Assembly: GCA_964525605.1 (NCBI GenBank)
Contig: CAZGKT010000001.1
Coordinates: 133,153-197,152 of the forward strand
Length of the DNA stretch: 64,000 nucleotides
DNA from: an uncultured bacterium
GTDB taxonomy: Bacteria > Oederibacteriota > Muellerivitia > Muellerivitales > Muellerivitaceae
Reading direction: 5' to 3'
Positions 11,728 to 37,475 of the stretch are shown here, piece by piece (within the stretch, counting starts at the first letter, position 1; every line of letters starts with the position of its first letter). The notes under the pieces are model-generated. The model was not told the origin of the DNA. It worked only from the letters and a program-made list of their open reading frames with translations, and ran no database searches. Position numbers and translations under genes: made by a program.

Positions 11728-12780
11728 CTATAAACGAGTAATGAGCGAAATGTAATTAATTGACCCGATGGAATTACTTACAAATGCGTAATCAACTTCA
11801 AACAGATAAGCCCATATACCCACCCCCACGGAAGGAGTGAAGTCATCATCATCGAATTGCATTCCTTTTGTTTCAAAACCGCCTCGAATAGCTACGAATT
11901 GTTTATACCAATATTCCAAACCGAGATGATAATTATTGAGAGATTGGCCAGCATAAAGGGTATCCGCATCAAAATTAATCTCAAGGGTACTTACCGGGAC
12001 GGGAGCACCGTTAGTGGTCACCCGTTTACCCAGTTCCTGAGTATAAGAAAGCCCCAGCGTCAAGCTAGGTTGGAGTGTTTGGGTTGGATTGGTGGGGGTA
12101 TTAGACCAAGTCACATATGATCCCCCAGTAATGTCCCGTCCAACTAAACCTATTGCAAATTCCTTGGCTGGTTTAAATATTAAACCAAGATCCGACCCAA
12201 TTCCAAAAGCCGAGGCCCCGGCCGCATCGGTTTTTAAAACCTTAATGGTTCCCCCAATCACTAGCTGATCCGCTACTTTCCATCCGCCTGAAAAAAAACC
12301 AGCCTGATCCGAATAAGAAGTCGTACCAATCACATTGGGACTTGATGCGTTGGTTATTGAAATCCCATCCACACCCAATCGCAGATAACTTATAGCGTAA
12401 GAGCCTGCATCTTTAGTATTGAAAGCAATATTTACAAAGTCGTAACTCTGGAGATCGTTTTCAGCCGCATGCATTGTTGTAATTTCAATATCGTCAATTA
12501 AAGCTAAGCCCGCTGGGTTCCAATATGCCGCCGAAGCATCATTTGCCGCCGCAACAAAAGCCCCTCCCATGGCCAATGGTCTTGCCCCTGCACCTTTGGT
12601 TAAAACTTCGGCGGTGTAATCTGTCGATTGGGCCCGAAGAGTAGCAACCCCTAATCCTAAAAAAATGGCTGACGTAAAAACAGAGATATAAAGTTTTGGA
12701 CCCACTGAACTTCTCCTCTCATGGACCAACAAATTTAGGGGCTTCACAAAAAGTTTATCAACCACCCCTTGAAAATTCAA
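11728..12780 (-). CDS. outer-membrane beta-barrel protein, FadL/TodX/PorV family (paralog 2)
   Basis: 350 aa with a signal peptide. Same N-terminal motif as the 2031..3044 protein ('GARPLAMGGAFVAAANDASAAYWNPAGLA'). Clearly paralogous. Confidence 0.6.
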   Translation of the reverse strand: MNFQGVVDKLFVKPLNLLVHERRSSVGPKLYISVFTSAIFLGLGVATLRAQSTDYTAEVLTKGAGARPLAMGGAFVAAANDASAAYWNPAGLALIDDIEITTMHAAENDLQSYDFVNIAFNTKDAGSYAISYLRLGVDGISITNASSPNVIGTTSYSDQAGFFSGGWKVADQLVIGGTIKVLKTDAAGASAFGIGSDLGLIFKPAKEFAIGLVGRDITGGSYVTWSNTPTNPTQTLQPSLTLGLSYTQELGKRVTTNGAPVPVSTLEINFDADTLYAGQSLNNYHLGLEYWYKQFVAIRGGFETKGMQFDDDDFTPSVGVGIWAYLFEVDYAFVSNSIGSINYISLITRL

Positions 12781-12987
12781 CTTGAATAGATTAAGCGATC
12801 TTTTTACTTTCGAAAGACACTTTTACGATAAACTGTGTCACAACAAAAGTAATCTTCGTGGCGGTTCAGTAACTTTATTGGCTGTCTGAGTCGAATAATC
12901 CGGTAAATCAGTTTCCGTTTTGGAGGGCCTGCTAAAAAGAGACACGATCTCTTCGAACTGTCGATTTGTTGACAAAGAACAAAAACG

Positions 12988-15489
12988 ATGGGTATAGTTA
13001 GCCAATTTCCCAAGCTATTCGAATTTGCAGCCCAATCATTTTGCCTATCAAGGAGACGATTAATGCCTGAGGTTAAACTTTGCGGGAAATGCGGTACGAA
13101 AAATCCATCATCAAATAGTTTTTGCGAACAATGCGGCAGTAAATTAAGCACACAAAACACTTCTTCGGCGACTACAGAAAAAACGGAAAAGAAACAACCG
13201 GTTTCGGTCAAATCTGCAAAGACTGGAATTAGTGCACCACCAGACTTAATAGTCGAAAAAAATCTCACTATCACCACCTCAGGGATGAACGCATCTAGCG
13301 TAACGGTCACATGGATGAATCTTTTTTATGTCGCACTACTGTTGATCACTATTTTTACGCGTTTTGATCATCTTGGTTCCAAACCGCATCATCATGATGA
13401 AAGCATGCACTCCTTTTATTCCTACCAACTTTTCAAAGATGGCGATTACGAATACAACCCAATGATGCACGGGCCCTTCCAGTTCCACGGAAACGCATTG
13501 ATGTATTACCTATTCGGTGTTTCAGATGCCACCTCACGGTATCTGGCAGCTTCTTTTGGCGTCCTAACAGTGATACTCGCCATGTTTCTCTCTCCTTTTC
13601 TCGGCCGCACAGGTGCCTTTCTGGCAACGCTACTCATCGTTTTTTCTCCAAGTTTTATGTATTTTGACCGTTTTACTCGGGAAGACGCTTATATTTGCGG
13701 GGCCACCTTTGCTATGGTCGTATTTTTATTCCGCTATGTTCGTTCCCGTCAACCCATCGACTTGTGGATTGCCTCACTAGGTTTTATCATTGCTTTCTGT
13801 ACCAAAGAATCCATGTTTATCACGATTGCCGTTATTGGGACCTATCTTTTTATTCGTCTGCTTCCCTGGCTCGATGTCTTTATCGCCGGAGGCTTAACTT
13901 GCTTGGGCGTTCTCTCGCAATTAGTCTTGAAAAATGTCGCTCCAGAAATGCCACAATCCACCCGTATTGTTTTCTTGCTCGTTTTTGCCGGCTCGGCTTT
14001 AGCTTGGACCCTTTACAACCTTTACATTCGATGGAAGTCAAACCAAGGAAAAAATTCAGAAAGTAACCTTTGGTCTGTTATCGAAAGCTTACGTATTGAA
14101 AAAGTCCAAATGGAATTAATGCTTTTTGCCGGTTGGTGGGTCCTGTGTCTCTTGTATTTGCGTCTATCCTTTTTGCAGCTTCCGCAGTTTACATTTATTT
14201 CAGTTCTGCTTTTGCTGGCCTACTTCATTCTTATTGGGCGTTTCGCTTGGTTGTGGCTCAGCAACGTATCCTCAGCCCTGACCGGTTCCATAACCATTGT
14301 TTCAGTTGTCTTTACCCTCCTCTTCACCACCTTTTTCACGGTGGGCGCCAATCAGCCGGATTGGCTAAGCCGGCTTCACTATCTTTTAAATGCCCTTTAT
14401 AACGGGGCATTTGGAGGTCTTGAATATTGGTGGGGACAACATGATGTCCACCGGGGTGACGAGCCTTTCTATTATTACCTGGTTGAACTTCCTGCCAACG
14501 AACTGGTTTCGTTCTTGTTTTCTGGGATTGCCATAGTTTATTACGGGGTTTTCAAGCGAAAAAACCTCCCACTTTTCTTGTCGTATTGGTACCTGGGTTC
14601 GTTGGCGCTCTTTTCCTGGGCTGGTGAAAAAATGCCCTGGTTGATCCTCCACCCCCTTCTACCTGCCTTGCTTTTAACCGCCTTTTTTGTGGGTGAAATT
14701 TGGGACGCCGTGCCCATCCAACAAGGTTGGCGATCCGCTCGAATTGCCGCACTTATGGGGTTCGGAATCCTCGCTTCATACTCCTTGCATTCGGCAGTTC
14801 TATTAAGCTTCTACCATGAAGCAAATCCCGTCGAACCCCTCGTCTATGTTCAATCGGGGCCCGATTGCAAAGAAGTGGAGCGAATTATAAGAGAGATTTC
14901 TTATGGAGAAACTGGGGGGCCAGACCTTCCCCTGACCATTGAGGATAAATGTTCCTGGCCATTCGCCTGGCAATTGCGAGATTTCGAAAAACGCAATCAT
15001 CCCTCAATGATTACTCAGGCCGATAACCCCATTATTCTTACCGGAACCGAAGCGGACAACCAATCCTATCCCATACTCAGCCAGGCAGGATATGTGAACA
15101 GGAAATACAAATTAAGGGTCTGGTGGGTTCCGTCCTGGTTTAAAAAGGGCTTTCCGGGCAGCGAAATGAATTTTGGACTTTTCTCGGACTGGCTTTTCAG
15201 TAACTTCATACCTGTCAAGCCGGCACGACCCGACATGGTGGATTGGACCGACCTTAAAAACTGGATTCTTTACCGGCAGGTTTGGTCCGATATGGGCAGT
15301 TATAACATGAGGATGTGGGTTCGCCCCGACTTGGCACAAAAATATGGGTTTACCGAAACGACACGTTCCGACATACCCGTTGATTATCCCAAAGCGGACG
15401 CCGTGACAACAGTATCCGTCCCCCAACCTGAAAATAAAAAAATAAATTTTCTAACATCTAAAAAACAACCCATGCCTAAAAAAAATTAA
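12988..15489 (+). CDS. GT-C-fold polytopic membrane glycosyltransferase-like protein (TIGR03663/PMT/ArnT-like) with N-terminal double-CxxC zinc ribbon
   Basis: 833-aa ORF. The probable true start is the Met at 13063 (MPEVKLCGKCGTKNPSSNSFCEQCGSKL: CxxC-X13-CxxC zinc ribbon). This is followed by >10 predicted TM helices with an early loop motif 'HHHDESMHSFYSYQ' (GT-C-like acidic DE motif), then a ~250-aa C-terminal soluble domain. The C-terminal domain resembles that of the N-terminal half of the 2053-aa protein. Confidence 0.6.
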   Translation: MGIVSQFPKLFEFAAQSFCLSRRRLMPEVKLCGKCGTKNPSSNSFCEQCGSKLSTQNTSSATTEKTEKKQPVSVKSAKTGISAPPDLIVEKNLTITTSGMNASSVTVTWMNLFYVALLLITIFTRFDHLGSKPHHHDESMHSFYSYQLFKDGDYEYNPMMHGPFQFHGNALMYYLFGVSDATSRYLAASFGVLTVILAMFLSPFLGRTGAFLATLLIVFSPSFMYFDRFTREDAYICGATFAMVVFLFRYVRSRQPIDLWIASLGFIIAFCTKESMFITIAVIGTYLFIRLLPWLDVFIAGGLTCLGVLSQLVLKNVAPEMPQSTRIVFLLVFAGSALAWTLYNLYIRWKSNQGKNSESNLWSVIESLRIEKVQMELMLFAGWWVLCLLYLRLSFLQLPQFTFISVLLLLAYFILIGRFAWLWLSNVSSALTGSITIVSVVFTLLFTTFFTVGANQPDWLSRLHYLLNALYNGAFGGLEYWWGQHDVHRGDEPFYYYLVELPANELVSFLFSGIAIVYYGVFKRKNLPLFLSYWYLGSLALFSWAGEKMPWLILHPLLPALLLTAFFVGEIWDAVPIQQGWRSARIAALMGFGILASYSLHSAVLLSFYHEANPVEPLVYVQSGPDCKEVERIIREISYGETGGPDLPLTIEDKCSWPFAWQLRDFEKRNHPSMITQADNPIILTGTEADNQSYPILSQAGYVNRKYKLRVWWVPSWFKKGFPGSEMNFGLFSDWLFSNFIPVKPARPDMVDWTDLKNWILYRQVWSDMGSYNMRMWVRPDLAQKYGFTETTRSDIPVDYPKADAVTTVSVPQPENKKINFLTSKKQPMPKKN

Positions 15490-15503
15490 TAAAGATAGAA
15501 TGA

Positions 15504-15541
15504 AAAAGGAGGAACGGTTATTACCGTCCCTCCTTTTTTTA
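15504..15541. terminator. bidirectional terminator hairpin between convergent genes
   Basis: 'aaaaaggaggaacggttattaccgtccctcctttttttaa': ~10-bp stem (1 mismatch), 6-nt loop, T7 tract on + and A5 on the other side. Confidence 0.5.
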
Positions 15542-15558
15542 ATTCTCGATGCCTTTTT

Positions 15559-16287
15559 TTACAGTTTTCCCAACCACACCATCCACCGAAGCTTCCAGAC
15601 CGTGCAAGCAAACAAGGTTAATTCTTTAAGAGAAAGTTTGCTTTCGCCTTGATGTCGGTTTACAAAAACAATCGGAAATTCTATGACTTTCGCATTTAAA
15701 CGAACGGCCCTGAAAAGAATTTCCACCTGAAACGAATAGCCGGGAGAAAATATTTTATTCAAATCGATTTTCTTCAATAGTTCTGCTCGGTAACATTTGT
15801 AACCGCCGGAGCAGTCTTCCGGTTGAAGGCCTAACAGGTATTTCGTCACCGAGTTGGCAAAACGGCTAATAAAAAAACGCCCCATTCCCCAATTCACCAT
15901 TCCCCCATCCCGTACATATCGGGAACCGATCACCAAGTCATATTCCAAGGCCAATTCCAACATTTTGGGGATATTCACCGGATCATGGGAAAGATCGGCA
16001 TCCATCGCGATCACCCGCCGATATCCCTTTTTTAACCCGAATTGCATCCCCTCCACATAAGCGGTTCCAAGACCACTTTTGGCGGAACGGTGAAGCACCT
16101 TTACCCGCCGATCTTTTTTTGCGATAAGGTCCGCAATTTTCCCTGTCCCATCGGGAGAATTATCGTCAACCACCAGTAGGTCGCAAGCCTTTGTGGCTAA
16201 GAATATTTTTTTGTAGACCGTCTCAATATTTCCCTTTTCGTTGTAAGTGGGGACAACAATTAAGGTTTGGTTTCTGGTTGAAGGCAT
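15559..16287 (-). CDS. GT2-family polyprenyl-phosphate sugar synthase (dolichyl-phosphate mannose synthase Dpm1/Ppm1-like)
   Basis: 242 aa: 'VVPTYNEKGNIETV', 'VVDDNSPDGTGKIA', 'RVIAMDADLSHDP' (DxD / D-A-D catalytic motifs of GT-A Dpm1-like enzymes). Confidence 0.8.
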   Translation of the reverse strand: MPSTRNQTLIVVPTYNEKGNIETVYKKIFLATKACDLLVVDDNSPDGTGKIADLIAKKDRRVKVLHRSAKSGLGTAYVEGMQFGLKKGYRRVIAMDADLSHDPVNIPKMLELALEYDLVIGSRYVRDGGMVNWGMGRFFISRFANSVTKYLLGLQPEDCSGGYKCYRAELLKKIDLNKIFSPGYSFQVEILFRAVRLNAKVIEFPIVFVNRHQGESKLSLKELTLFACTVWKLRWMVWLGKL

Positions 16288-16449
16288 TTAATCCCTATTT
16301 TCGGTCAAATGAAGAAATTTAAAATCTCGTTAAAAATAAAGTTCTTCATAAAATCGACTTAATAGTAGTCTAATTTAAAAGCAGGGAACAACTAACAAAG
16401 GTATGTACGACCAATATCTTTAATCAAGAAAAACACCATCGCTAAAATA

Positions 16450-17481
16450 CTATTTCCCTGGTTTCATAATTGGAACAAACCGAGCTACACGATTAATTCC
16501 CTTTTCAACCACCAAAACTCTACCAGCTGTATCCACGGCGATTCCTGCCGTTTCACCCATCGTATCCTTTCGTTGATAAATGGCTAAAAGTTTCCCATCC
16601 GTAGTAAATCTTAAGACCGCACCACGACTGGCGTTGCTCGCATAAATATTACCCTGGTAAAAAGCTAGATAGGGCATCTCCTCGTTTTTACCTTTCCAGG
16701 TTAAAACTTTAAAGGACCCTAAAAATCTTCCATTTAGATCAAACTTTTGTATCCTGCGATTGTCCGAATCAGCAACATAAAGAAAACCGCCGGGGTCAGC
16801 TGTTATTCCAACTGGTTCCTGAAATTGTCCGTTAGCTGAGCCAAAGCCGCCCCACTCCATTAAAAAATTACCATTTAAATCAAAAACTTGTATTTTGTGG
16901 TTACCCGTATCGCAAACGAAGATTCGATTGCCCACCTCCACCAGATCTCGAGGACCAAAAAAACCATGGTTGAATTTAGAAAGAAATTTTCCCTTTCCAT
17001 CAAACTTTTGCACCCTGTGGTTGAAAGTATCGCAGACCAACAGGTTTCCCTGTCCATCCACGATTAAACCGCTGGGTTGAACAAATTGCCCATCCCCTTT
17101 GCCTTGAGTTCCAAAAGCAAATTCTTCCTGGCCGTTGGAATCAAACTTACGGATATTATGTGCGCTGAAATCGCTGACATAAAATCCTCCATCGGGAGAA
17201 GCCGCCACCACCTGGGCTTCCTTAAATTTCTCGGATTTGGGCCCAGAACCATCCACTTCCATATCCGTGTAGATTTGGACAATTTTTGAGAGTGTCAGGG
17301 CCTGGGTCAATCGATCCACCCCCACATACGTCAAGACAGCCAAAAGGGCCAAACCAAAAACAACTGATAAAACCACCATCCCTTTGCCAATTTTTCTTTT
17401 TTTCGCATTTCCCGTCTGCAACTTCGACTTCTTTGAGCGGAGGGTGGATTTATTGGGCATGCTTTTCTCCTTAGGATTCAA
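16450..17481 (-). CDS. N-terminally membrane-anchored NHL-repeat beta-propeller protein
   Basis: 343 aa. Basic N-terminal tail plus TM (MVVLSVVFGLALLAVLTYVG). Six repeats of the 'G.F..P.G.a.d..G.iyVaD..N.RIQ.Fd..G.F' type (e.g. 'NHRVQKFDGKGKF', 'NHKIQVFDLNGNF', 'NRRIQKFDLNGRF'). Confidence 0.75.
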   Translation of the reverse strand: MNPKEKSMPNKSTLRSKKSKLQTGNAKKRKIGKGMVVLSVVFGLALLAVLTYVGVDRLTQALTLSKIVQIYTDMEVDGSGPKSEKFKEAQVVAASPDGGFYVSDFSAHNIRKFDSNGQEEFAFGTQGKGDGQFVQPSGLIVDGQGNLLVCDTFNHRVQKFDGKGKFLSKFNHGFFGPRDLVEVGNRIFVCDTGNHKIQVFDLNGNFLMEWGGFGSANGQFQEPVGITADPGGFLYVADSDNRRIQKFDLNGRFLGSFKVLTWKGKNEEMPYLAFYQGNIYASNASRGAVLRFTTDGKLLAIYQRKDTMGETAGIAVDTAGRVLVVEKGINRVARFVPIMKPGK

Positions 17482-17493
17482 TCAAACTTGATC

Positions 17494-18546
17494 TTATTGG
17501 CCCTTGATCTTGAAAAGGCTTCCAGCCCCTGCGTCAACAACAAGCAAGTTCCCATCCTTATCGACCGCCAGACCCATCGGAACGCGGAACAGATCGTTAC
17601 CAGCCGAATCCTTTTGAATCGAAGTCACCAAGGTTCCGTCGAGATGGTAGCAAAGAACCTGTTTGCCCCTGCCATCCGAAACGTACAGAAGCTGTTTCGT
17701 TTTATCCAATGCCAAGTGGGGTTCCATATCCACCTGATCCTTGACCCATCCCTTAACCGGCCATTGTTTTAGAAATTGTCCATCGGGGGAGAAAACCTGT
17801 ATCCTGAAATTTAATCGGTCGGCGACGTATAAATTTCCCGCTTGATCCAAAGCCAATCCGATGGGTTCATTGAATTCCCCGGGTTTTGTTCCCGGAATCG
17901 GGGCGCCTGACTTGGGGTCTACCGCACACCAGGTCCGTATTTTTTGGCCCTTGGGGTCGAATTTAACGACACGGTGTTTCCCAGTATCCGCGACATAGAT
18001 AAAACCATTTCCGTCGACCGCAACTTCTCGAGGTCCCCAAAATCCATCTCCAATAGCAAATGCCAACTTAGGATTGCCATTTTTATTGAATATTTGAATA
18101 CGGGCGTTCCAAGTGTCGGCGACATAAATAGTATCGTCAGAACCAATGGCAATACCATTCGGCTCGTTCAACTTTCCAGGAAGGGCTGAAGAAAGTTTCT
18201 TTGCGTCCCCACCGCCCACGTTGCCAAATCCCCCAAACTCACCTTGAAATTGCCAATTCTTGGCGGAGAACCGTTGAATTCGATGGTTCTTGCTGTCAGC
18301 CACAAAGATATCGCCCTTACTGTTGACGGCAATTCCGCGAGGATATGAAAACTGGCCCGGTCCGGATCCAGGAGTGCCCCCCATCAGTAAAACCAGGTTA
18401 GCTGCTGCAGGCGATGGTGCCCGGGAGATGATGGGTTTAGGTTTGGAAAGAACCATTGCCCATACCGCCGCCAAGGCCACTAAAATCAGAAGCCCAGCCA
18501 TGATGAGTTCCTTCAGTGTTACAATGCGTTCCCCGATCTTGATCAT
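17494..18546 (-). CDS. N-terminally membrane-anchored NHL-repeat beta-propeller protein (paralog)
   Basis: 350 aa. TM anchor (LIMAGLLILVALAAVWAMV). NHL repeats ('NHRIQRFSAKNWQF', 'NARIQIFNKNGNP', 'KHRVVKFDPKGQK', 'NFRIQVFSPDGQF'). 12-bp spacing to the downstream NHL gene. Confidence 0.75.
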   Translation of the reverse strand: MIKIGERIVTLKELIMAGLLILVALAAVWAMVLSKPKPIISRAPSPAAANLVLLMGGTPGSGPGQFSYPRGIAVNSKGDIFVADSKNHRIQRFSAKNWQFQGEFGGFGNVGGGDAKKLSSALPGKLNEPNGIAIGSDDTIYVADTWNARIQIFNKNGNPKLAFAIGDGFWGPREVAVDGNGFIYVADTGKHRVVKFDPKGQKIRTWCAVDPKSGAPIPGTKPGEFNEPIGLALDQAGNLYVADRLNFRIQVFSPDGQFLKQWPVKGWVKDQVDMEPHLALDKTKQLLYVSDGRGKQVLCYHLDGTLVTSIQKDSAGNDLFRVPMGLAVDKDGNLLVVDAGAGSLFKIKGQ

Positions 18547-18574
18547 TTTCCAACCCTCCCGTTGAATTTTGAAA

Positions 18575-21118: not shown

Positions 21119-21151
21119 GAACCTCCGAGGGTGGATAATAAAATCATGCTG

Positions 21152-24100
21152 TTAATTTCGAACAGGAGGAGGATTGTAATAAATTTCAACTTCCGGATTT
21201 TTATAAATCAATGGCAAAAAATTGGCAAATTTCGCCAATCCCAAGGTGGGGTAACCGGCTTTGCCCCCGGCTCCATTTCGTTCAATAGTCCCCACCATTA
21301 CGAGTCGAACCCCATAAGCGTCCAACATCCGCTTGGCCAATCCCAGATCCGTTGTTTCGTATATTTGGTCCACTGCCGCTTTACGGTTGTAGATATCGGT
21401 GTCCAACTGTTTTCCCACCCATTCATGTACATGTGAATCCCACCCCATAAGCGCCGGAATACCTGTGAAAATTGAAAAGCGCGAGCCCCAAGAATTATAA
21501 CCTGCACCCACAAATTCCATGAGGCAGGGCTGGTTGGGGACATGGTCGTTCAAAAAGCGAATCGCGGCGTCGTCTCCCGGGTTGGAGCGGTGCATATACT
21601 CGAGCCCGTTTAGCGTAGGGCTTTCCACATAACCAACCCATTTCAGACGAGTTGATTCAAAAAAACCATGACACTTCCTTATTGAAGCCGCCAGGGGATA
21701 AATCGATACCGCTATAGCTAGAATCAAAACCAATGTACTCCAGCATCGGAAGGCGAGTTTCGCACCCATATTCTTTTGACCTTCCCATAGGAAGGCAATT
21801 AGGGTTACTGAAAGAGCCGCAAGAGAACCCGGTAAAAGAAATTCAACATTCAGGATGTTGCTCCAATGTTGAATCAGGTTTAGAAGAGAGCCAAAACTTC
21901 CTTGAGGAAGCAAGGAAACTATTGATACAAAAATCGACATCCCTCCCAGTCCCAAACTTAAAACCCAATCAGCTGTCTTTTTCAAAGTGCTCGTTGTCAA
22001 TCTCCATATCAAAAGGCCCGCCACAACAACGATGTTAATGATATAGGTAATGGGTGTTTGGAGCGAATCGGCAAAGTTGAAAAAGATAAGTTCCAAAATT
22101 AAGAATAGAAGCACCCCGGCCACCGCAACCAGCACGCGTTTGGATACGAGAGTCTCTTTTTTAGCCGTTTTAAGCCATCCCAAAATGAAATCAATCATCT
22201 TGGGAATCAAAGCTCCCACGGCGATGGAGGCCAACATCCAGGCGTGAATTCCAAATTTAAACAAGGAGTTGTTCCGCATCCAGTCGCCGCCCAAAAACTC
22301 ACTGACGGCGAACAATTCCAAAACTGCTAAGACCAGAAATAAAAGCGCGGTTAGAATATAGGTAAAAGAAAGAGGCCGGTCCTTGATAACCTTCACGGCA
22401 AGTCCAAGATAAAAGAATCCCAAGAGCCACAAAACCGAGCAAAGACCCAACCCAAGGGTTAAAGCCATATCCTGATAAAGGTGAATTCCCTGGAGGGAGA
22501 GAACAACTATCCACAGCAATACCACCGCTGCTTCCGCCAGCCATATTTCCCAGCGAGTTTTTAACTGAACCGCAAGCACAAGCAAAATCGCGGCTACGCT
22601 GGCCAATAGCTGTGAGAAAAAGACCTTCCCCTGGGGTTCAGACCAATGAACCCAGGAAGCTCCCCAAACCACCATCAGAGAAAAGAACCCCAGTGACAAA
22701 ATTCCCCGAACGGGGTCTTTAGGGGAAAGCAATCCCGATAGAAAATCAAAGGCTTTGTCGGGCAAATTTTTCAAGAATCGTTTTTCCGGCTTGGCTTTAC
22801 CCACCCAGAGCAAAATCTCTTTGGAATAGGCCAGAACAAAACTCATTAAAAGTATTGAAAGAAAAAAACCATAAATACCAATGAAGTCGTTAAGATCCGT
22901 GCGAATGGACGGCAGAACCCAGAGAATCTTGTTTTGCTGAGGAGTAAATCGAAGAAAGTTCGGAATCCAGAACAAGCCCGCGGTCACCAATATTCCTGCC
23001 ACACCTACTGCAATAAACAGCAAGTGTTTCGAAAGAAGCCGCGTAGTTTTTTGTAAATATAGCCAGAGGACAGACGCTAAAAACCCAAGACCAAGAAATA
23101 GAATCAAGTAGAACGTGGACCCACCCAGAGCCTGTTGATCCACCCCAGGCATGATCAAGGTCCACCAACCCAGCAAGGTAAACGCAAGAACCAGAATGCT
23201 GAAAACCATGCCAGACCCTTTCACAATGGTTTTTCCATTGAGAACTACAAGTCCGCGAACCAAAAGAGTGATCCCGATGATCGCGAGCCCCGTGAGAATA
23301 TCCCAAGTATTCAGAAACACGAGCCCGCCCATCAAAAATCCAGCAACCAGAAACTTGAACCAATCCCCTTTCCAACTAAATAGCTTAGGCGCAGGGGATA
23401 AATAAATGGAAGCCACCACTCCCCATAAAAGCATGTCGAAAGGCATGGCTAGCGTATGTGAATGCATGTCGCCATAAAGCACGCTGAAATAGGGAAACTC
23501 GTTGATACTGTTCGGAATCACTCGAGAGGGGCCAAAAAAATCATAGGTAATTCCGTTAAGCGCGGACAAGTTATGGGCGACTATGCATTGGTTAATCGCG
23601 GCCAAATATTGTTTAACTCCGGTGAGGTTGCTCGCCATTGCACATAAAAAACCTGCCACCCAACCTCCCGAAAGCCGTCCCGATAAGACGTAGGCTAGAC
23701 CGAAAGCGGATGAAAAAATCAGGGCAAATAGAGTTATCAAGCTCAAGTTATAGGTCACGGCAGGTACCAGCCCCAGAGTTTTGGAGAGTATCCCCATCAT
23801 TAGATGGCCAAAATAATACGGGTAACCAATAGGTTGGCCCGCCATCCACATATTTTGTGGAGGGAATGTCTCGCCCCGCACGATGGAGGCCAAAAATCCA
23901 AAATCCATACCCGCTTCTCCACCCCCATTGTATCCTTCGCCCGAGGGATCATGCACATGAGAGGAATAAAGACGGACGAATGTGAACGCGATAAAGGCAA
24001 AAACGAACACGCCTTCTTGAATTAACCAGACACGACCCAAACGCTTATAAAAATCTTTGATAACTTTTCGGTCGCGCCAATACCCATAAACCGAAAGACC

Positions 24101-27100
24101 CGTAAGAAGCAAAAACCAAACCCAACAGGCCCCCGCTGTAAAATGCGTGATTTTCAAGCTTGTCATAAACCACACAACCCAGGTGAAAACAAGGAAACCC
24201 AGAACCTTACTGAGCGAATAGGCCCCCGCAGAAATAGGGGAAAGGATGCGAAGCGTCAGCGGTAATACGAGCCATCCGAGGACAACCAAAAGCGCCAGCC
24301 AGGTGAACCAGGCGCGGCATTGATAACCCGTCTTCTCTTCCGGTCGGGGAGGCAAATTCATGATGTCATTTTCCACAACTGGGTGGTCCGCCAGGTCTTG
24401 CAAAACCTTGAGGGTTTGAGTGTCCGGCAAGCCGGGCACGGTCGCAGGGGCCTGAACTGGGGGGGCGTTAACATCGGTCACGGAGGAAGAGGCAGCGGAT
24501 GCCGGAGGAAGTTTCCCCCCTATGGGGGGCACAATAGCAGGCAAGGTTTTTTCAGCTTGTAGTTTGTCGGGCGGCGGAGGAGATTGAGTTGCAGGCGCGG
24601 AAAGGTTGTTAAGCTTTTGAAGCAGCCCGGCCTGTTCCAGAGCCTGGTTATGTTTGCTGATGAAATCATCCACGTTTTCAGGCGTGATTGCCCTCATCTG
24701 GTCACGAGTAATGCCCCGCACGTAATCATCCGAGTTGAGAATTTCCAAGATGCGTTCTGGAGTCACTTGCTCGACTTTTTTGAAAATATAAACCCGAGGA
24801 TGGTCATACACGGAAAAGGATTCCTCAGCCATATCATCCGGATGGGCCCACCCTAGCAAGCTGGGAAAATTGTGAAATTCATGTAACATTTTGTAACCTA
24901 AAAGCCCAGCCCAGAGGGCCCGGTAATACCGGGAGGTCACTGGATAAGCATTAAACCCGTGAGGCCTGAACTCAGGAGTTTCATCCGTTAGGGTGTACCA
25001 GAGTTTCTTTGAAGAAATGGCGATATAGTCAGCCTGAGGAATCATATTGGCGTAATAATTTTTCTTTACCGGGCTGTCGTCCGTTGGAAAACCGTGCAGT
25101 TCGTAGGGAGTCAAATCCTGGAGTTGGTAAAGTCCCGGATTCATCGGCCGATCTAACCGTGAGTCCTGTTGGGGGTTCAAATCCACCGGCAACCCATCTC
25201 CCCAGGCCTCGTTATAAATCTTTGAGCCAAGGGGTATGTTTTTATAAATCCAGCCTGATGAATCAAGCCAGGGATGCGCATACCGATAGACATGCATATA
25301 GGCCATTGAATAAAAAAGGCTTCCACCAACGGTTAATGCCAATAGCGCGGGTTTGATAAACCTTTCCAGGTTTTTAGGGAGCCGATCAAACACATTCCAC
25401 AAAAAAATCGCCGCAAAAATGCAAAAAACAGGGGCCAGGGGAACCATATAGCGTATGAATTTCGTGTTCCATCCGCCAATAAAGGCGAAATAGGGGATGA
25501 ACCAAGAAAGAAGAATGAGTTCTGGCAGGATAAATCTAAACCCTTTGTTTTTCAGAAAAGGCGCTGGGAGGATCGCTCCGGAAGAAACCGGTTGAAAAAG
25601 CTGAAGAACGAATCTTCCTAAAACCCAAACCATCCCTAGTACCGCCGTGATCCCGAGGGGCCACCACAACTCCACACTGATCAGGTTCTGAAGATGAAAA
25701 ATGTATCGGGGCGTGTCTTTAAATTGCAGCACATAGCAGGCGCCCGCATCAGATACCACCGACCACTCATAATTCATTGAGTTCATAAACCCCTGGTAAT
25801 CCAAGAGGGACCATGGTGAAAGCAAACAAAAGATCAGAAATGAAAGAGCACCGGCCGAAGAAAGTCTTAACCACAGGGGTACCTGGGCCCGCAATACCCT
25901 GAATTTCGAGACTCCCCACACAAACAGGACTGCGGCCATACCTGCAAGAGAGAGAAAAAGAACAATCCAAATGCCAATGGAACCGTTGGGGTTCAAAGGG
26001 CAGAGATCACGTATGACACCCTTTAATTTATAACCTGCTCCAACCAAAGCGCCTGTACCCCCAGCGAGAAACAGTGCCGCGAGAATATTGTTCAGGCTTT
26101 GATCGTCCCTGTTTTTATGATCAAGCTTCAGCCAATCCTTTTCAGTGGTTTTCGATAAATACACCAGATGGCCGATCAAAATCATGAACAGGTAATAAAG
26201 GGAGCTTGTTTTTGCCGCCATGGAAAGACCAAAAGCCGCACCAACTAAAAGGTAATTTTTCCAAGACCCCTGCCGAGAAACTTCATACGCACCAAGTGCG
26301 ATGACCACCAACATGAGGGTGATAAAAGATTCCGTGATGCAGTAATGGCAAACCTGGATACTCACAACGGAGAAAGCGAAAAACGCAGACCCCAAAAGGG
26401 CTAGTGGTTTATTTTCATAAACCTTGTTCAGGAACCAATAAATAACCAGAATGGTCAGGGTGGAAAAAAAGGCGGCCCAAATACGCCCAATAATCATGCA
26501 ATCGCTGTAACCAGTGTATTGAAGGCCATAATGCGAGAAAGAGGCGAAAATGGCCCAAATCCCCAGGGCCATTTGAAGAAGTCGGCCCCACCGGGATTCC
26601 CAGCTAAACCAAGTAAATGCCGCTCCGACGACCAACGCAAAGGCCATGGAACCAAAGGTTCTCGCGAAAGCATCTGGAAGGAAAAATGGTATGACACCCA
26701 ATAAAAAGGTCAATCCAGCTGCGATATAAATTGGGAGTCCTAACCATTCCAATCCGATGAAATCGGACAAAAGGGCCGAAACCCCGAAAAACAAAATCGC
26801 GTCCAAGCAAAAATTCGCTCCTTTTAATGGCCAATCATTCAGAAAATCAAACCAGGCCGAAAACACTGGCACGAATTTGATAAACAAAACAAGCAAAAAC
26901 ACCCCGGAGGCGATTAAGAAAGAAGGAATTTTGAATTTTTTCCGTGGGAAAAGCCAACCGATTCCCGCAAATAGAGAGATAAGAAAAGCCCAATAAAAGA
27001 AAGCAGCTAGGAAAGCCTGGTTGGGGAAAAACGAATTGAAAAAAGACGGGGTAGAAATTAGTTCACCGGTGGCTCGATAAAGGTAAACAGGCAGTTGGCC

Positions 27101-27313
27101 GTAAGCAAAGAACTTAACCTTAAAACCATCCGAGGCTTGAATACTTGCGGTTTGACCAAGAATGTTTCTTTCATCAGGATGAAAGGACTTGCCAAAATCC
27201 CAGTTAGGATTGTAAAACCGGAAACCCGCTCCTAAGAGAGTAATAAAAACAAGTATGATAAATGTTGGATTATTCCAACGTCTCAAGACCGATAAATTGC
27301 TTTTTCGGGCCAC
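21152..27313 (-). CDS. giant (2053 aa) polytopic membrane protein: N-terminal GT-C (TIGR03663/PMT-like) module, Pro-rich linker, C-terminal DUF2298 'YYY'-like module
   Basis: N-terminal part has an early-loop 'FHPDERN' acidic motif like the 12988 protein, with >12 TM helices and a soluble domain. Pro-rich segment aa ~905-990 ('ATQSPPPPDKLQAEKTLPAIVPPIGGKLPPASAASSSVTDVNAPPVQAPATVPGLP', nt ~24346-24601). C-terminal half repeats the DUF2298 signature 'GGEAGMDFGFLASIVRGETFPPQNMWMAGQPIGYPYYFGH' (aligns to the YYY motif of the 847-aa protein). C-terminus 'PALMGWDSHVHEWVG..IYETTDLGLAKRMLDAYGVRLVMVG' aligns with the 847-aa protein C-terminus. No internal stops over 6.2 kb. Confidence 0.65.
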   Translation of the reverse strand: MARKSNLSVLRRWNNPTFIILVFITLLGAGFRFYNPNWDFGKSFHPDERNILGQTASIQASDGFKVKFFAYGQLPVYLYRATGELISTPSFFNSFFPNQAFLAAFFYWAFLISLFAGIGWLFPRKKFKIPSFLIASGVFLLVLFIKFVPVFSAWFDFLNDWPLKGANFCLDAILFFGVSALLSDFIGLEWLGLPIYIAAGLTFLLGVIPFFLPDAFARTFGSMAFALVVGAAFTWFSWESRWGRLLQMALGIWAIFASFSHYGLQYTGYSDCMIIGRIWAAFFSTLTILVIYWFLNKVYENKPLALLGSAFFAFSVVSIQVCHYCITESFITLMLVVIALGAYEVSRQGSWKNYLLVGAAFGLSMAAKTSSLYYLFMILIGHLVYLSKTTEKDWLKLDHKNRDDQSLNNILAALFLAGGTGALVGAGYKLKGVIRDLCPLNPNGSIGIWIVLFLSLAGMAAVLFVWGVSKFRVLRAQVPLWLRLSSAGALSFLIFCLLSPWSLLDYQGFMNSMNYEWSVVSDAGACYVLQFKDTPRYIFHLQNLISVELWWPLGITAVLGMVWVLGRFVLQLFQPVSSGAILPAPFLKNKGFRFILPELILLSWFIPYFAFIGGWNTKFIRYMVPLAPVFCIFAAIFLWNVFDRLPKNLERFIKPALLALTVGGSLFYSMAYMHVYRYAHPWLDSSGWIYKNIPLGSKIYNEAWGDGLPVDLNPQQDSRLDRPMNPGLYQLQDLTPYELHGFPTDDSPVKKNYYANMIPQADYIAISSKKLWYTLTDETPEFRPHGFNAYPVTSRYYRALWAGLLGYKMLHEFHNFPSLLGWAHPDDMAEESFSVYDHPRVYIFKKVEQVTPERILEILNSDDYVRGITRDQMRAITPENVDDFISKHNQALEQAGLLQKLNNLSAPATQSPPPPDKLQAEKTLPAIVPPIGGKLPPASAASSSVTDVNAPPVQAPATVPGLPDTQTLKVLQDLADHPVVENDIMNLPPRPEEKTGYQCRAWFTWLALLVVLGWLVLPLTLRILSPISAGAYSLSKVLGFLVFTWVVWFMTSLKITHFTAGACWVWFLLLTGLSVYGYWRDRKVIKDFYKRLGRVWLIQEGVFVFAFIAFTFVRLYSSHVHDPSGEGYNGGGEAGMDFGFLASIVRGETFPPQNMWMAGQPIGYPYYFGHLMMGILSKTLGLVPAVTYNLSLITLFALIFSSAFGLAYVLSGRLSGGWVAGFLCAMASNLTGVKQYLAAINQCIVAHNLSALNGITYDFFGPSRVIPNSINEFPYFSVLYGDMHSHTLAMPFDMLLWGVVASIYLSPAPKLFSWKGDWFKFLVAGFLMGGLVFLNTWDILTGLAIIGITLLVRGLVVLNGKTIVKGSGMVFSILVLAFTLLGWWTLIMPGVDQQALGGSTFYLILFLGLGFLASVLWLYLQKTTRLLSKHLLFIAVGVAGILVTAGLFWIPNFLRFTPQQNKILWVLPSIRTDLNDFIGIYGFFLSILLMSFVLAYSKEILLWVGKAKPEKRFLKNLPDKAFDFLSGLLSPKDPVRGILSLGFFSLMVVWGASWVHWSEPQGKVFFSQLLASVAAILLVLAVQLKTRWEIWLAEAAVVLLWIVVLSLQGIHLYQDMALTLGLGLCSVLWLLGFFYLGLAVKVIKDRPLSFTYILTALLFLVLAVLELFAVSEFLGGDWMRNNSLFKFGIHAWMLASIAVGALIPKMIDFILGWLKTAKKETLVSKRVLVAVAGVLLFLILELIFFNFADSLQTPITYIINIVVVAGLLIWRLTTSTLKKTADWVLSLGLGGMSIFVSIVSLLPQGSFGSLLNLIQHWSNILNVEFLLPGSLAALSVTLIAFLWEGQKNMGAKLAFRCWSTLVLILAIAVSIYPLAASIRKCHGFFESTRLKWVGYVESPTLNGLEYMHRSNPGDDAAIRFLNDHVPNQPCLMEFVGAGYNSWGSRFSIFTGIPALMGWDSHVHEWVGKQLDTDIYNRKAAVDQIYETTDLGLAKRMLDAYGVRLVMVGTIERNGAGGKAGYPTLGLAKFANFLPLIYKNPEVEIYYNPPPVRN

Positions 27314-27413
27314 AACACCCTCTAAATTCGTTGATTTTCGCAGAGAAATTCAAAAAACGTGTTGCAGTATAGCTGAATTACCAAGTAAAAAAAACGTTCA
27401 AATTCTAGACCTA

Positions 27414-27800
27414 TTACCGACAAAAAACCTGGGATCCCCCGACTTGAAGGTTATTACAAAACACCTTAAAAGAATATATTCCCGGGGCTGGAAAGACCAC
27501 CCGCCAACTGGTTATCAGGTCATGAAAGCTCATGTCGGAAAACAAAATCTTGCGTGGAGCCGAATCGGATACTTTGACCCCTTTTTCGTCAAAAAGACTA
27601 ATATCAATTTGAAATTCCCCTCCCGAAGGATGGTTCAGCCTGGTAAAAGTCATAAATTCAACCCCAAATGGATAACCCGGCGGCCCAAACCCTTGAAAAA
27701 CACCTCTTAAGTCGTAATTTTTATTCAAAACATCCTGAAAAATAGAATGACAACAGAGAAAGCTTGAAACCTTTGGCAGATTAAAATCAGTTGAGTTCAC
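27414..27800 (-). CDS. hypothetical small protein (128 aa), possibly translationally coupled to the upstream GT2
   Basis: Start overlaps the GT2 stop in an ATGA arrangement (27797-27800). No recognisable motif. The competing + strand ORF 27255..27710 overlaps the giant gene start and looks less plausible. Confidence 0.35.
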   Translation of the reverse strand: MNSTDFNLPKVSSFLCCHSIFQDVLNKNYDLRGVFQGFGPPGYPFGVEFMTFTRLNHPSGGEFQIDISLFDEKGVKVSDSAPRKILFSDMSFHDLITSWRVVFPAPGIYSFKVFCNNLQVGGSQVFCR

Positions 27801-28585
27801 TGGGGCCGCTTCCCTTTTTCTTTGAAGTACCTCAAAGCTTTTTGATTCATTTCACTTGGCACCTCGAATTTTTCTTTAGCCCCTAATAGCATCCGCCCAA
27901 AACACCAGAGACTCAAGGTTAAAACAATGAACCCATCCAAAACCGTGGTTCCGGCTCGGTAATAGGCAATTTTAACTAAAAATTGATTGTCAATACGGAA
28001 TTTGGCCCTGGCCGTGATAAGAGCGATTTCCTGGGCGCAGGAATATTTTATTCCCGTGTAAAAGGAAAGAATAGTCGGTAGGGTTCGAACCTGTAAGAGG
28101 CGAAGCCCCGATTCGACATCCTGATACCTGTGGCCAGAAAGCACTGAGTTTGTGAATGTTAAAAACCTATTTCCCCATATTTTATATCTTGGGTAGACGG
28201 AAAAATCCCTTTTCGTCAAAACCACATCCACTTTTTTCTTCAGCATGTACCGAACTAATTCGGGAATATATTCGGGTTTGTGTTGTCCATCCGCGTCGAG
28301 GGTGACCACGATGTCTGTATTACTCACGATTCCCTGATCGCGCAAGTATAAGACAAACAAAAACCCCTGTTTTAAGGCGCCGGCCATTCCTGAGTTAAGC
28401 TTTAAATCGACTAGAAACAAACTTTGATCTTTTCTAGAGAAAGCACAAAGAATTTCTCGGCTTCCATCGCTCGAGCCGTCATTCACGCAAACCAAATAAT
28501 CCACCCTCGGCCTTAAAAGGTGAAGAACGGAAAGAAGGTGTTTTTCTTCATTGAAAATTGGTAGTACCGCCACGACTTTTGGCAC
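27797..28585 (-). CDS. GT2-family glycosyltransferase (polyprenyl-phosphate sugar synthase, Dpm1-like)
   Basis: 262 aa: 'AVLPIFNEEKHL', 'VCVNDGSSDGSREIL', 'VVTLDADGQHKPEYIPEL' (DxD / D-x-D catalytic signatures). Basic C-terminal tail with a probable TM segment. Confidence 0.8.
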   Translation of the reverse strand: MPKVVAVLPIFNEEKHLLSVLHLLRPRVDYLVCVNDGSSDGSREILCAFSRKDQSLFLVDLKLNSGMAGALKQGFLFVLYLRDQGIVSNTDIVVTLDADGQHKPEYIPELVRYMLKKKVDVVLTKRDFSVYPRYKIWGNRFLTFTNSVLSGHRYQDVESGLRLLQVRTLPTILSFYTGIKYSCAQEIALITARAKFRIDNQFLVKIAYYRAGTTVLDGFIVLTLSLWCFGRMLLGAKEKFEVPSEMNQKALRYFKEKGKRPQ

Positions 28586-28629
28586 AGTGTTCCTCAGAAA
28601 TTAATTAAAAAAATATGACCCAAATAAAA

Positions 28630-28661
28630 AAACCCGAAACCCCAAGGTTTCGGGTTTTTTC
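28630..28661. terminator. bidirectional rho-independent terminator (downstream of korB and of the GT2 promoter side)
   Basis: 'aaaaaacccgaaaccccaaggtttcgggtttttt': 10-bp perfect stem, 4-nt loop, flanking A6/T6. Confidence 0.55.
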
Positions 28662-33914: not shown

Positions 33915-34033
<119 letters not shown>

Positions 34034-34129
34034 ACATCGAGATCGTTAACTGTTATTAGCAGTTAAAAAGATTGATTGAAATACTATCCTTGAACCAAAG
34101 TGGATTAGGAATTGCGGTGAAGATGAAAC

Positions 34130-37163
<3,034 letters not shown>

Positions 37164-37446: not shown

Positions 37447-37475
37447 CCGGATCTAACCAGAAGCCCACGCATAGA

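Follow-up and report, generated by a model that had tools for sequence, protein, structure and literature searches.

A candidate lipid-linked-sugar glycosylation cassette with four predicted GT-C modules in a diderm bacterium

What could two GT2 glycosyltransferases, two NHL propellers and three large membrane proteins be doing together in one bacterial locus? The original prediction proposed a glycosylation machine that depends on lipid-linked sugars. We found all eight of its open reading frames in place in the window, that is, the whole 64,000-nucleotide stretch of DNA analysed, and profile annotation of the array proteins upheld the family to which each had been assigned. The features of the locus are:

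H, 27797-28585, minus strand: GT2 protein of 262 aa, first gene of the unit
G, 27414-27800, minus strand: soluble DUF6941 protein of 128 aa
F, 21152-27313, minus strand: protein of 2053 aa, PMT_2-like + TIGR03662
F residues 1-900, 24614-27313, minus strand: PMT_2/ArnT-like GT-C module
F residues 901-1000, 24314-24613, minus strand: Pro/Ala/Ser-rich linker joining both predicted GT-C modules
F residues 1001-2053, 21152-24313, minus strand: DUF2298/TIGR03662 (YYY) module, paralogue of E
E, 18575-21118, minus strand: DUF2298/TIGR03662 (YYY) protein of 847 aa
D, 17494-18546, minus strand: NHL propeller of 350 aa
C, 16450-17481, minus strand: NHL propeller of 343 aa
B, 15559-16287, minus strand: GT2 protein of 242 aa, last gene of the unit
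A, 12988-15489, plus strand: TIGR03663 protein of 833 aa, convergent to B
Hairpin with a 16-bp stem, 15503-15538, no strand assigned: between B and A, with T-runs on both strands
GC-rich hairpin followed by a T-run, 28626-28660, minus strand: just upstream of H

Reading the sequence confirmed the gaps claimed for F-E (33 nt), E-D (28 nt) and D-C (12 nt). G and F are 100 nt apart, C and B 162 nt, and the convergent genes B and A 69 nt. H and G overlap by 4 nt, as had been described, but the shared sequence is GTGA (G starts with GTG) and not ATGA. The hairpin between B and A, seen in the terminator scan and in the intergenic sequence, is probably a bidirectional terminator. The hairpin upstream of H was read by eye from the sequence and was not among the hits of the terminator pattern scan. 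It lies downstream of the genes for 2-oxoacid:ferredoxin oxidoreductase. This hairpin suggests that the array from H to B is a transcription unit of its own. A promoter-like site (12969-12998) overlaps the annotated ATG of A, and the real start of A may be Met26.

The two GT2 proteins had been called Dpm1-like, and both indeed group with polyprenyl-phosphate sugar synthases in NCBIfam and among solved structures. B (PF00535, 96 bits) carries the DAD motif (MDADLSH), and TM prediction found no TM segment in its 242 aa. Its closest solved relative is the dolichol-phosphate mannose synthase of P. furiosus (5mlz, 4.1e-30, residues 9-241), whose catalytic domain it matches end to end; its top NCBIfam matches, all under cut-off, are AglJ, PgfS and Dol-P hexose transferase. 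H (PF00535, 71 bits; DAD motif in LDADGQH) has a single C-terminal hydrophobic helix (TM segment 215-233) and is closest to ArnC (5e-07) and GtrB among solved proteins, while PpgS and ArnC, both far under the equivalog cut-offs, are its top NCBIfam matches. Judged by sequence, B and H are probably the enzymes which load sugars onto a membrane lipid. Since all GT2 scores are far under the equivalog cut-offs, we assign no donor sugar to either of them.

The large membrane proteins proved to be GT-C proteins and not transporters, as predicted, according to profile matches, models and Foldseek. E matches TIGR03662 with 498 bits (cut-off 300). Its AF2 model (pLDDT 92.5, pTM 0.95) has full-length AfAglB as the best Foldseek match (1.3e-06), and the prediction is a GT-C fold into which a cytoplasmic zinc ribbon is inserted and which is followed, at the C-terminus, by a globular domain like that of AglB. 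The DUF2298/YYY family is thus predicted to adopt a GT-C fold and to end in a domain like that of the archaeal oligosaccharyltransferase AglB. This C-terminal domain is conserved in the family, and clusters of Glu, Asp and His are invariant in long loops that would lie outside the membrane. The YYY module had been seen as the partner of a GT-C; since it is modelled as a GT-C fold itself, F would be a tandem of two GT-C modules and the locus would have four, where at least three putative transferases had been proposed.

In F, residues 1003-2053 match TIGR03662 with 344 bits, and the YYY module is 29% identical to E (4e-31, BLASTP), with an additional match of the C-terminal domain (7e-16). The PMT_2 match of the N-terminal part (27.3 bits, cut-off 26.1) was seen only when residues 1-1000 were scanned alone. 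Every homologue of this module has PMT_2 or PMT, and its profile matches ArnT (9e-4) and Pmt1/Pmt2 (1.5e-3). The AF2 model of the module has a pLDDT of 89. Residues 1-900 contain HPDER in the first loop, invariant among homologues (H45 P46 D47 E48 R49), and a soluble C-terminal domain of ~250 aa. TM prediction gave no TM segment for residues 643-1005, and in some relatives the N-terminal module is a separate protein of 926-1128 aa. A matches TIGR03663 (242 bits, cut-off 126) and PMT_2 (31.4 bits). It has an N-terminal zinc ribbon (Zn_Ribbon_1, 25 bits), the DE motif HHDES, the HGP motif MHGPF and a soluble C-terminus of ~260 aa.

The two propellers are 30% identical (2e-35). D (NHL, 160 bits) has a single N-terminal anchor (TM segment 14-32), which would put its propeller on the outer side of the cytoplasmic membrane; its solved relatives are the NHL domains of TRIM71, Thin and Brat and the sensor domain of PknD. 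In C (NHL, 99.6 bits) the TM segment (35-53) follows a Lys/Arg-rich N-terminal tail. The small protein G matches PF22091 (DUF6941) with 28.2 bits, above the cut-off (27); no TM segment was predicted and no solved relative was found for it. Among the loci compared, the DUF6941 gene was confined to those of FCPU426 type (7 loci).

Since the GT2 matches, the GT-C matches and the conserved neighbourhood described below were all favourable, a lipid-linked-sugar glycosylation machine is the favoured and well supported reading. We give a probability of about 70% that H to B together with A form a glycosylation cassette that works on the outer side of the cytoplasmic membrane and draws on lipid-linked monosaccharides. 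Homology suggests how it would work. At the cytoplasmic face, B (Dpm1/DPMS-like) and H (ArnC/PpgS/GtrB-like) would each charge polyprenyl phosphate from a nucleotide sugar, and the two synthases would probably give two different donors. The lipid-linked sugars would move to the outer leaflet, with A of the Agl23 family as the candidate mover. There the PMT_2-like half of F, its YYY half, E and, if it is a transferase, A would transfer the sugars to an outside acceptor, probably with one linkage per GT-C module. The anchored C and D could form a complex with the PMT_2-type modules, as acceptor-binding or scaffolding subunits.

Synthase, flippase and GT-C are an established design (PMC11127046), known from GtrA/GtrB/GtrC in Salmonella and Shigella and from the polyprenyl-phosphoribose synthase, MATE flippase and GT136 in Citrobacter (PMC11127046). 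These three-component systems likewise make a polyprenyl-phosphate monosaccharide in the cytoplasm and then use a GT-C with a soluble periplasmic domain outside. However, they have one GT-C, whereas the cassette has four predicted modules, two of them within one 2053-aa chain, and these belong to TIGR03662/03663 and not to GtrC or GT136. The cassette also has two synthases and two anchored NHL propellers, and it has no GtrA, MATE or Wzx flippase. The N-terminal module of F and A match PMT_2 and thereby resemble Pmt1/2/4 (GT39), bacterial Pmt with Ppm1, and ArnT (GT83), with which they share the acidic DE-type motif of the first loop and a Dpm1/Ppm1- or ArnC-type GT2 as donor source. This similarity is marginal (27-31 bits), no acceptor specificity can be inferred, and the cassette proteins have different soluble domains, with neither MIR nor PMT_4TMC. 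The YYY proteins are built like AglB, STT3 and PglB, in that a GT-C membrane domain of many helices precedes a globular domain at the C-terminus. Unlike these, they have extra N-terminal helices, no STT3 Pfam match and, in place of WWDYG, the conserved motif TGxPTxLGWxxHExQWRG, and their genes are linked to monosaccharide-phosphate lipid synthases and not to an oligosaccharide-diphosphate lipid pathway.

What would the acceptor be? Secreted or envelope proteins with Ser/Thr/Pro-rich regions are our first choice, at slightly less than even odds, followed by a cell-envelope glycan or lipoglycan and, with a small share, by anything else; overall, glycans or lipids are about as probable as proteins. 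It is possible, although we doubt it, that a cell-envelope polysaccharide or lipoglycan, and not proteins, is what the cassette assembles or modifies, with the propellers as carbohydrate-binding modules. The chemistry would be the same and the acceptor alone would differ. By analogy, it could resemble the assembly of mycobacterial lipomannan, lipoarabinomannan and arabinogalactan, in which Ppm1 feeds polyprenyl-phosphate mannose to several GT-C enzymes. Multiple GT-C modules per locus would suit stepwise polymer synthesis. However, the GT-C families differ from PimE, MptA/B, EmbA-C and AftA-D, the host envelopes are unrelated and, to our knowledge, the mycobacterial genes form no such compact cassette and involve no NHL propellers. 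An envelope polymer would also agree with the methyltransferase, GT4, GT9, UbiA-family prenyltransferase and Wzx-like Polysacc_synt genes in related loci, with a Chloroflexi locus in which DUF2298 adjoins a PMT2/PA14 protein (PMC8756737), and with the C-terminal carbohydrate-binding module which the GT-C has in one of the known three-component systems (PMC11127046). Against this, the cassette spans the diderm FCPU426 (lpt genes are in the window), Chloroflexota and Archaea. We know of no envelope polymer common to these three. Moreover, the nearest solved NHL relatives are protein or RNA binders or sensor domains, the YYY C-terminal domain is like that of the protein-modifying AglB, and Agl23 is said to supply donors for protein N- and O-glycans (PMC11182771).

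The role of A bears on the flipping step. TIGR03663 is currently named 'flippase activity-associated protein Agl23' in NCBIfam, and Agl23 is described as a putative flippase for hexose-P-dolichol, which donates the sugar for N- and O-glycans (PMC11182771). The purified Haloarcula hispanica protein moves lipid-linked glycans across liposome membranes: it translocated M5GN2-PP-phytanol, M5GN2-PP-dolichol and M3GN2-PP-phytanol without ATP, and for the last of these the text speaks of flipping activity on M3GN2-PP-Dol; it also rescued yeast rft1-delta (PMC11182771). The claim that these families have no experimentally assigned function thus fails for TIGR03663 and stands for DUF2298, as we found no biochemical data for any DUF2298 protein in the literature. 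Since profile annotation of the window revealed no canonical or dedicated flippase (GtrA, MATE or Wzx), A is the sole flipping candidate with experimental precedent. All this would fit A, and possibly the YYY proteins, being scramblases or flippases for polyprenyl-linked sugars, with the PMT_2-type module of F as the only catalytic one. We consider this unlikely because A retains HGP and, where the GT-C catalytic loop lies, the DE motif, the invariant clusters and C-terminal domain of YYY are enzyme-like and unlike scramblases, and the Goldbacteria locus L005 has a Wzx-like gene besides its A-like gene.

Agl22 and Agl23 of H. hispanica reportedly help to make and to use lipid-linked intermediates of N- and O-glycosylation (Lu et al. 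2020), and Agl22 is listed as a glycosyltransferase of the N-glycosylation pathway. With A next to a Dpm1-like GT2, the locus pairs the gene families of that study. Here, however, the host is bacterial and diderm, and A has an N-terminal zinc ribbon, is convergent and not co-directional with the GT2 gene, and belongs to a larger cassette that also has genes for DUF2298 and NHL proteins.

The glycosylation cassette is further supported by its neighbourhood, which is conserved in related genomes, as the original prediction expected. All loci of the FCPU426-type clade with adequate flanks (L001-L003, L006-L008, L011) had the seven-gene order from H to B, apart from local insertions, an F that is split in L007 and a missing DUF6941 in L003. 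L009 retained it as far as the contig end, and the order persists in relatives down to 47% identity. Loci L004 and L005, from other phyla and at 32-34% identity, have a reshuffled gene set that includes GT2 and two to three genes for NHL propellers. Chloroflexota, Goldbacteria and Archaea also have the PMT_2/YYY core, in which the GT-C is often fused to an NHL propeller. PMT_2+DUF2298 fusions were found in 39 ORFs of the retrieved loci and in many database proteins, and PMT_2/TIGR03663+NHL fusions in at least 10 loci of Chloroflexota, where the propeller is attached to the C-terminus of the GT-C. One protein, P0159, unites PMT, DUF2298 and NHL. The suggested neighbourhood comparison asked if Dpm1-like GT2 genes recurrently flank TIGR03662/03663 pairs, and in general they do not: among adequately flanked loci, we found GT2 no more than 10 kb from the cassette in 7/7 of the FCPU426-type clade and in 0/41 of Chloroflexota. 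This means that the synthase link is clade-specific or that the GT2 genes are elsewhere in those genomes.

In the FCPU426-type clade the whole region is syntenic, oxidoreductase genes included, so conservation within that clade alone proves little. Still, it is very improbable that these are neighbours by synteny in one candidate phylum, with GT2, NHL and GT-C in separate envelope pathways: the oxidoreductase, PorV-like and Pro/Ser-rich genes beside the array are conserved there too, the C-B and G-F gaps could hold internal promoters and Chloroflexota have no GT2 nearby, but the fusions, the reordered yet united gene set in other phyla, an archaeal GT2 gene which overlaps the YYY gene start (L075), and the gaps of 12-33 nt with the 4-nt overlap, which indicate co-transcription, all speak against it.

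The polyprenyl diphosphate synthase noted at 24-998 does exist (PF00348, 237 bits). The usual glycan carrier of bacteria is the product of the cis-type UppS, whereas we take PF00348 to be the trans-polyprenyl synthase family, so this trans-type protein is not the usual carrier-lipid enzyme. Its gene lies 12 kb from the array, behind uvrA and the lpt genes.

All eight open reading frames of the original prediction, A to H, were found exactly at the positions it had given. Genes H to B lie on the minus strand and A converges with B.

Genes of the array, in the order of the minus-strand genes, with A last
H, 27797-28585, minus strand: GT2, 262 aa
G, 27414-27800, minus strand: soluble DUF6941 protein
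F, 21152-27313, minus strand: 2053 aa, PMT_2-type module and DUF2298
E, 18575-21118, minus strand: 847 aa, DUF2298/TIGR03662
D, 17494-18546, minus strand: NHL beta-propeller
C, 16450-17481, minus strand: NHL beta-propeller
B, 15559-16287, minus strand: GT2, 242 aa
A, 12988-15489, plus strand: 833 aa, TIGR03663, convergent with B

The short gaps reported for F-E (33 nt), E-D (28 nt) and D-C (12 nt) are the same in the sequence, and further gaps of 100 nt and 162 nt separate G from F and C from B. H and G do overlap by 4 nt as proposed, but the overlap reads GTGA and not ATGA. The stretch that separates H from the upstream 2-oxoacid:ferredoxin oxidoreductase genes contains a GC-rich hairpin with a T-run, and a hairpin with a 16-bp stem separates B and A. 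Judging from the gene spacing, the overlap and these bounding hairpins, H to B looks like a single transcription unit of 13 kb. The promoter scan was uninformative, with fewer sites (13) than in shuffled sequence (22.7), the sole exception being a single 11-of-12 match where A starts.

E and the second half of F are paralogous and belong to the DUF2298/TIGR03662 (YYY) family (497.9 and 344.3 bits, respectively, with a cut-off of 300.25). The YYY motif reads SYYYFGY in E and appears as the variant YPYYFGH in the C-terminal module of F. When the YYY profile was compared with solved structures by sequence, there was no relevant match and the zinc-ribbon segment alone resembled ribosomal proteins. 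The structural model of E (pLDDT 92.5, pTM 0.95) gave full-length Archaeoglobus AglB as the first Foldseek match (1.3e-06), followed by DPY19 and AftA, with E-values from 1e-6 to 1e-4. Residues invariant in 59 YYY sequences (E124, D145, the YYY motif, D297/H299/H301 in the arrangement D297-x-H-x-H301, and TGxPTxLGWxxHExQWRG) cluster in the long loops of the E model and in its C-terminal domain. As modelled, the YYY family itself has the GT-C fold and F is a tandem GT-C. The locus would therefore hold four GT-C modules, namely A, both halves of F, and E.

The original prediction had set transporter families against GT-C for the large membrane proteins, and the comparison came out for GT-C. Transporters appeared in the Foldseek search at a probability of 0.3 or less only, and we rejected this assignment. 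The likeness of YYY to AglB is limited to the fold of the C-terminal domain. Since the YYY proteins had neither an STT3 Pfam match nor the WWDYG motif, and conserve LGWxxHExQWRG instead, we also rejected their membership in the oligosaccharyltransferase family (STT3/AglB/PglB). Among the candidates scored, DUF2298/TIGR03662 had 2423 matches at E <= 1e-10. Zinc-ribbon-like CxxC...CxxC segments are present at the N-terminus of A (12988-13150, plus strand) and in an internal Lys-rich loop of E (CSFCG...CGTCGG, 19600-19760, minus strand), and the Goldbacteria homologues of A and E at locus L005 also carry a zinc ribbon (PF13240). These common ribbons may point to a shared cytoplasmic partner or regulator.

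The first 1000 residues of F narrowly pass the PMT_2 profile (27.3 bits, cut-off 26.1), and only if scanned alone. Every homologue of the F N-terminal module matches PMT_2 or PMT, some of them with PF02366, and those with names are ArnT-family, GT39 or phospholipid-carrier-dependent glycosyltransferases. In a 38-sequence alignment of the module the stretch H45 P46 D47 E48 R49 (HPDER) is invariant; in the AF2 model (pLDDT 89.3, pTM 0.89) it lies directly behind the first helix (16-32). Among solved structures, the profile of this alignment matches ArnT and the yeast proteins Pmt1 and Pmt2. The F N-terminal module has both the fold and the acidic first-loop motif of a GT-C enzyme. Its soluble domain is followed by a Pro-rich linker that connects it to the YYY half, and F has about 34 hydrophobic segments in total.

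A matches TIGR03663 with 241.9 bits (cut-off 126.25) over profile positions 4-432 of 435. It also scores above the PMT_2 cut-off and has a zinc ribbon at its N-terminus. A search with it against solved structures gave nothing relevant, with just the zinc-ribbon segment resembling ribosomal proteins. The translation contains HHDES and MHGPF, in agreement with the invariant DE dipeptide and the HGP tripeptide near the N-terminus, which we take to be the hallmark of TIGR03663. A retains a DE motif of the kind used in GT-C catalysis. Neither A nor the F N-terminus has the GT39 set of PMT (PF02366), MIR and PMT_4TMC domains; both match PMT_2 alone (27-31 bits). Because BLASTP of the F N-terminus against A found no significant similarity, the two represent distinct PMT_2-type families, and their origin as recent paralogues was ruled out. 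The current NCBIfam name of TIGR03663 is 'flippase activity-associated protein Agl23'. Agl23 of H. hispanica is described as the putative flippase for hexose-P-dolichol, and the purified protein translocated lipid-linked glycans; Agl23 also rescued yeast rft1-delta (PMC11182771). The claim that these families have no experimentally assigned function is therefore sound for TIGR03662 as far as the searchable literature shows, but not for TIGR03663, for which flipping data exist. A could act as a transferase, as a scramblase, or in both roles.

Both GT2 proteins of the array carry a DAD motif, MDADLSH in B and LDADGQH in H, and they share 27% identity. B (242 aa) has no membrane segment and matches Pyrococcus furiosus dolichol-phosphate mannose synthase (DPMS, 5mlz) over the whole catalytic domain with 4.1e-30. 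H (262 aa) carries one C-terminal hydrophobic helix; among solved structures it is closest to ArnC (5e-07) and GtrB (8e-06), and its best NCBIfam match is PpgS. The proposal that both make polyprenyl-phosphate sugars agrees with the GT-A/DAD features and with these solved relatives, so their assignment to the polyprenyl-phosphate glycosyltransferase class of GT2 is supported at the level of sequence. An equivalog-level NCBIfam assignment would fix the sugar specificity; neither protein reached that level, the best matches being AglJ for B (59 bits, cut-off 325) and PpgS for H (51 bits, cut-off 370).

C and D, which share 30% identity, each have one N-terminal membrane anchor before the NHL propeller. 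Among solved structures, D comes closest to the NHL domains of TRIM71, Thin and Brat and to the PknD sensor domain, which is extracellular. A search against solved structures found no relative for G.

The window is bacterial and includes a complete rRNA operon, 16S-tRNA(Ile)-tRNA(Ala)-23S-5S (33916-39263, minus strand), which could serve for a phylogenetic placement of the organism. The host is a diderm, because LptD, LptF/G and PorV-like genes are found in the window. The nearest genomes are MAGs of 'candidate division FCPU426', where the homologue of E has 80% amino-acid identity, and their isolate names point to bog and palsa samples.

The H-G-F-E-D-C-B order is kept in six loci of the FCPU426-type clade (L001, L002, L006, L007, L008, L011) and, up to the contig end, in L009. 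At 47% identity, L003 keeps H-F-E-D-C-B without DUF6941 and with extra genes. A convergent A-like gene lies beyond B in five of these loci. In L007 (4471-10642) F is divided into two overlapping ORFs, and in the database homologues P0123-P0129 the PMT_2-like and YYY parts are separate, stand-alone proteins of 926-1128 aa. In these close relatives F may have undergone genuine fission, or the split may come from a frameshift or an assembly error where the Pro-rich linker is encoded.

More distant loci keep the theme in other combinations. L004 (34% identity) has UbiA, a 1502-aa PMT_2+DUF2298 fusion, a GT2, a DUF2298 protein and three NHL genes. At the Goldbacteria locus L005 (32%), DUF2298 is accompanied by a PMT protein, two NHL genes, a Wzx-like Polysacc_synt and a GT2. 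In an archaeal locus (L075) the GT2 gene overlaps the start of the YYY gene. Of 41 Chloroflexota loci flanked by 6 kb or more on each side, 21 have a large YYY fusion, 23 an A-like gene and 8 an NHL domain. Flanking of TIGR03662/03663 genes by Dpm1-like GT2 genes was seen in FCPU426, L004, L005 and at least one archaeon, but in none of the 41 Chloroflexota loci.

PMT_2+DUF2298 fusions account for 39 ORFs among the fetched loci, at least 10 Chloroflexota loci encode a PMT_2/TIGR03663 protein with a C-terminal NHL propeller, and PMT, DUF2298 and NHL are joined in one protein of 1645 aa. The locus of this triple fusion (L086, 1-16137) also encodes a Mannosyl_trans2-like GT-C, a second DUF2298 protein, three methyltransferases, a GT4, an unfused NHL protein and a PMT_2+NHL fusion, a set of genes that would fit a product with methylated sugars. 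YYY genes occur in the cultured Chloroflexota Dictyobacter alpinus and D. arantiisoli, and loci from Thermoflexus-related MAGs were recovered as well. In some relatives, such as Dictyobacter (L024, L065), the F N-terminal module is a gene of its own adjoining YYY, and D. alpinus (strain Uno16, L024) has the four-gene GT-C core. The conserved core is a PMT_2-type GT-C with a YYY GT-C, often together with NHL, and adjoining lipid-sugar synthases are a trait of FCPU426, L004, L005 and at least one archaeon.

The families, folds, motifs and gene linkage observed here make glycosylation outside the cytoplasmic membrane the best-supported reading of the cassette, and from them we infer each chemical step. 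B and H would form two polyprenyl-phosphate sugars at the inner face. These sugars would then get to the outer leaflet, where the GT-C modules would pass them to an acceptor; the polyprenyl-linked donor is connected to these modules by the genomic linkage of Dpm1/ArnC-like GT2 genes only. The NHL propellers would bind the acceptor or provide a scaffold, working in trans in this cassette and in cis in Chloroflexota.

Systems built from a synthase, a flippase and a GT-C are well known (PMC11127046). Such three-component systems have a dedicated flippase; here, a scan of window ORFs of at least 150 aa, a range above the size of GtrA (about 120 aa), found no GtrA, MATE or MOP/Wzx protein. By analogy, A is the only flippase candidate with a precedent, flipping having been shown for the H. 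hispanica protein only. The polyprenyl synthase at 24-998 was rejected as a part of the system, being of the trans type (PF00348) and 12 kb away with uvrA and lpt genes in between. Together with a cNMP-binding (Crp-like) gene it occupies 24-1768 (minus strand), 11 kb from A. Homologues of the two genes are found about 5 kb or less past the cassette in L004 (15565-18554), which may be a remnant of linkage.

As for the acceptor, we tentatively favour protein, with a probability of about 45%. The structural relatives are PMT-like and AglB-like, the solved NHL relatives bind protein or RNA, Agl23 acts in protein glycosylation, and two secreted proteins of the window have very long Ser/Thr/Pro-rich regions. 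A glycan or lipoglycan acceptor is only somewhat less likely. It would be in line with AftA among the best structural matches of YYY, with several GT-C modules side by side, with the methyltransferase, GT4, GT9, UbiA and Wzx genes in related loci, and with a Chloroflexi locus where DUF2298 has a PMT2/PA14 neighbour (PMC8756737). An acceptor of some other kind is unlikely.

The first of the two secreted proteins (9430-11622, minus strand) has 730 aa and a signal peptide and matches no known family. Its tail of about 560 aa contains 20% Pro, 13% Ser and 13 LPPLPG-like repeats, and the protein is a possible O-glycosylation substrate. Together with a PorV/PorQ-like gene (11728-12780), it is encoded beyond A, on the opposite side from the H-to-B array. 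The pair is at the same place in L002, L006, L007, L008 and L011, and the whole region is syntenic in the clade. The second, a candidate glycoprotein of 839 aa (52831-55350, minus strand), has no family match either, and very long Thr/Pro-rich (TPT-type) linkers connect its two globular domains. In our reading its C-terminal segment resembles the sorting domains of type IX secretion, with no HMM match.

The cassette had been proposed as a new system. This may hold for several of its parts, but the general design is known and Agl23 has experimental data. The searchable literature has no paper assigning a function under the names DUF2298, TIGR03662 or TIGR03663. As far as this literature shows, three things are undescribed: the reading of DUF2298 as a GT-C that carries a domain similar to one of AglB, the recurrent fusion and pairing of DUF2298 with PMT_2/Agl23-type GT-Cs and NHL across phyla, and the full donor-to-transferase layout in the FCPU426-type clade. 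The bioinformatic case for the cassette is solid and experimentally approachable, and cultured Chloroflexota with YYY genes are where the role can be tested. The uncharacterised and widespread DUF2298/TIGR03662 gains a testable role: as a GT-C transferase it would be in physical association with PMT_2/Agl23-type partners and NHL, and in the FCPU426-type clade be fed by the two adjoining lipid-sugar synthases. The debated 'flippase' Agl23 is set in a wider genomic context. A protein acceptor would mean a new glycosylation pathway in bacteria, and a glycan acceptor a new pathway for an envelope polymer in phyla of which little is known. A bolder version, which we regard as improbable in its entirety, is that YYY is a new oligosaccharyltransferase-like GT-C family (a GT-C membrane domain with an AglB-type C-terminal domain). 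With PMT_2/Agl23-type partners and NHL it would form an undescribed machine for general protein glycosylation, present in Chloroflexota, FCPU426, Goldbacteria and some Archaea and targeting Ser/Thr/Pro-rich secreted proteins like the 9430-11622 and 52831-55350 products.

A fifth GT-C in the window (31753-33711, plus strand) is a 652-aa TMEM260-like protein (former DUF2723; PF11028, 80 bits), set apart from the array by two oxidoreductase genes. The gene at 45369-47648 (minus strand) encodes a multi-pass membrane protein of 759 aa whose C-terminus is soluble and whose PMT_2 score of 23 bits (E 1e-4) is below the cut-off of 26.1; it may be a sixth GT-C-like protein.
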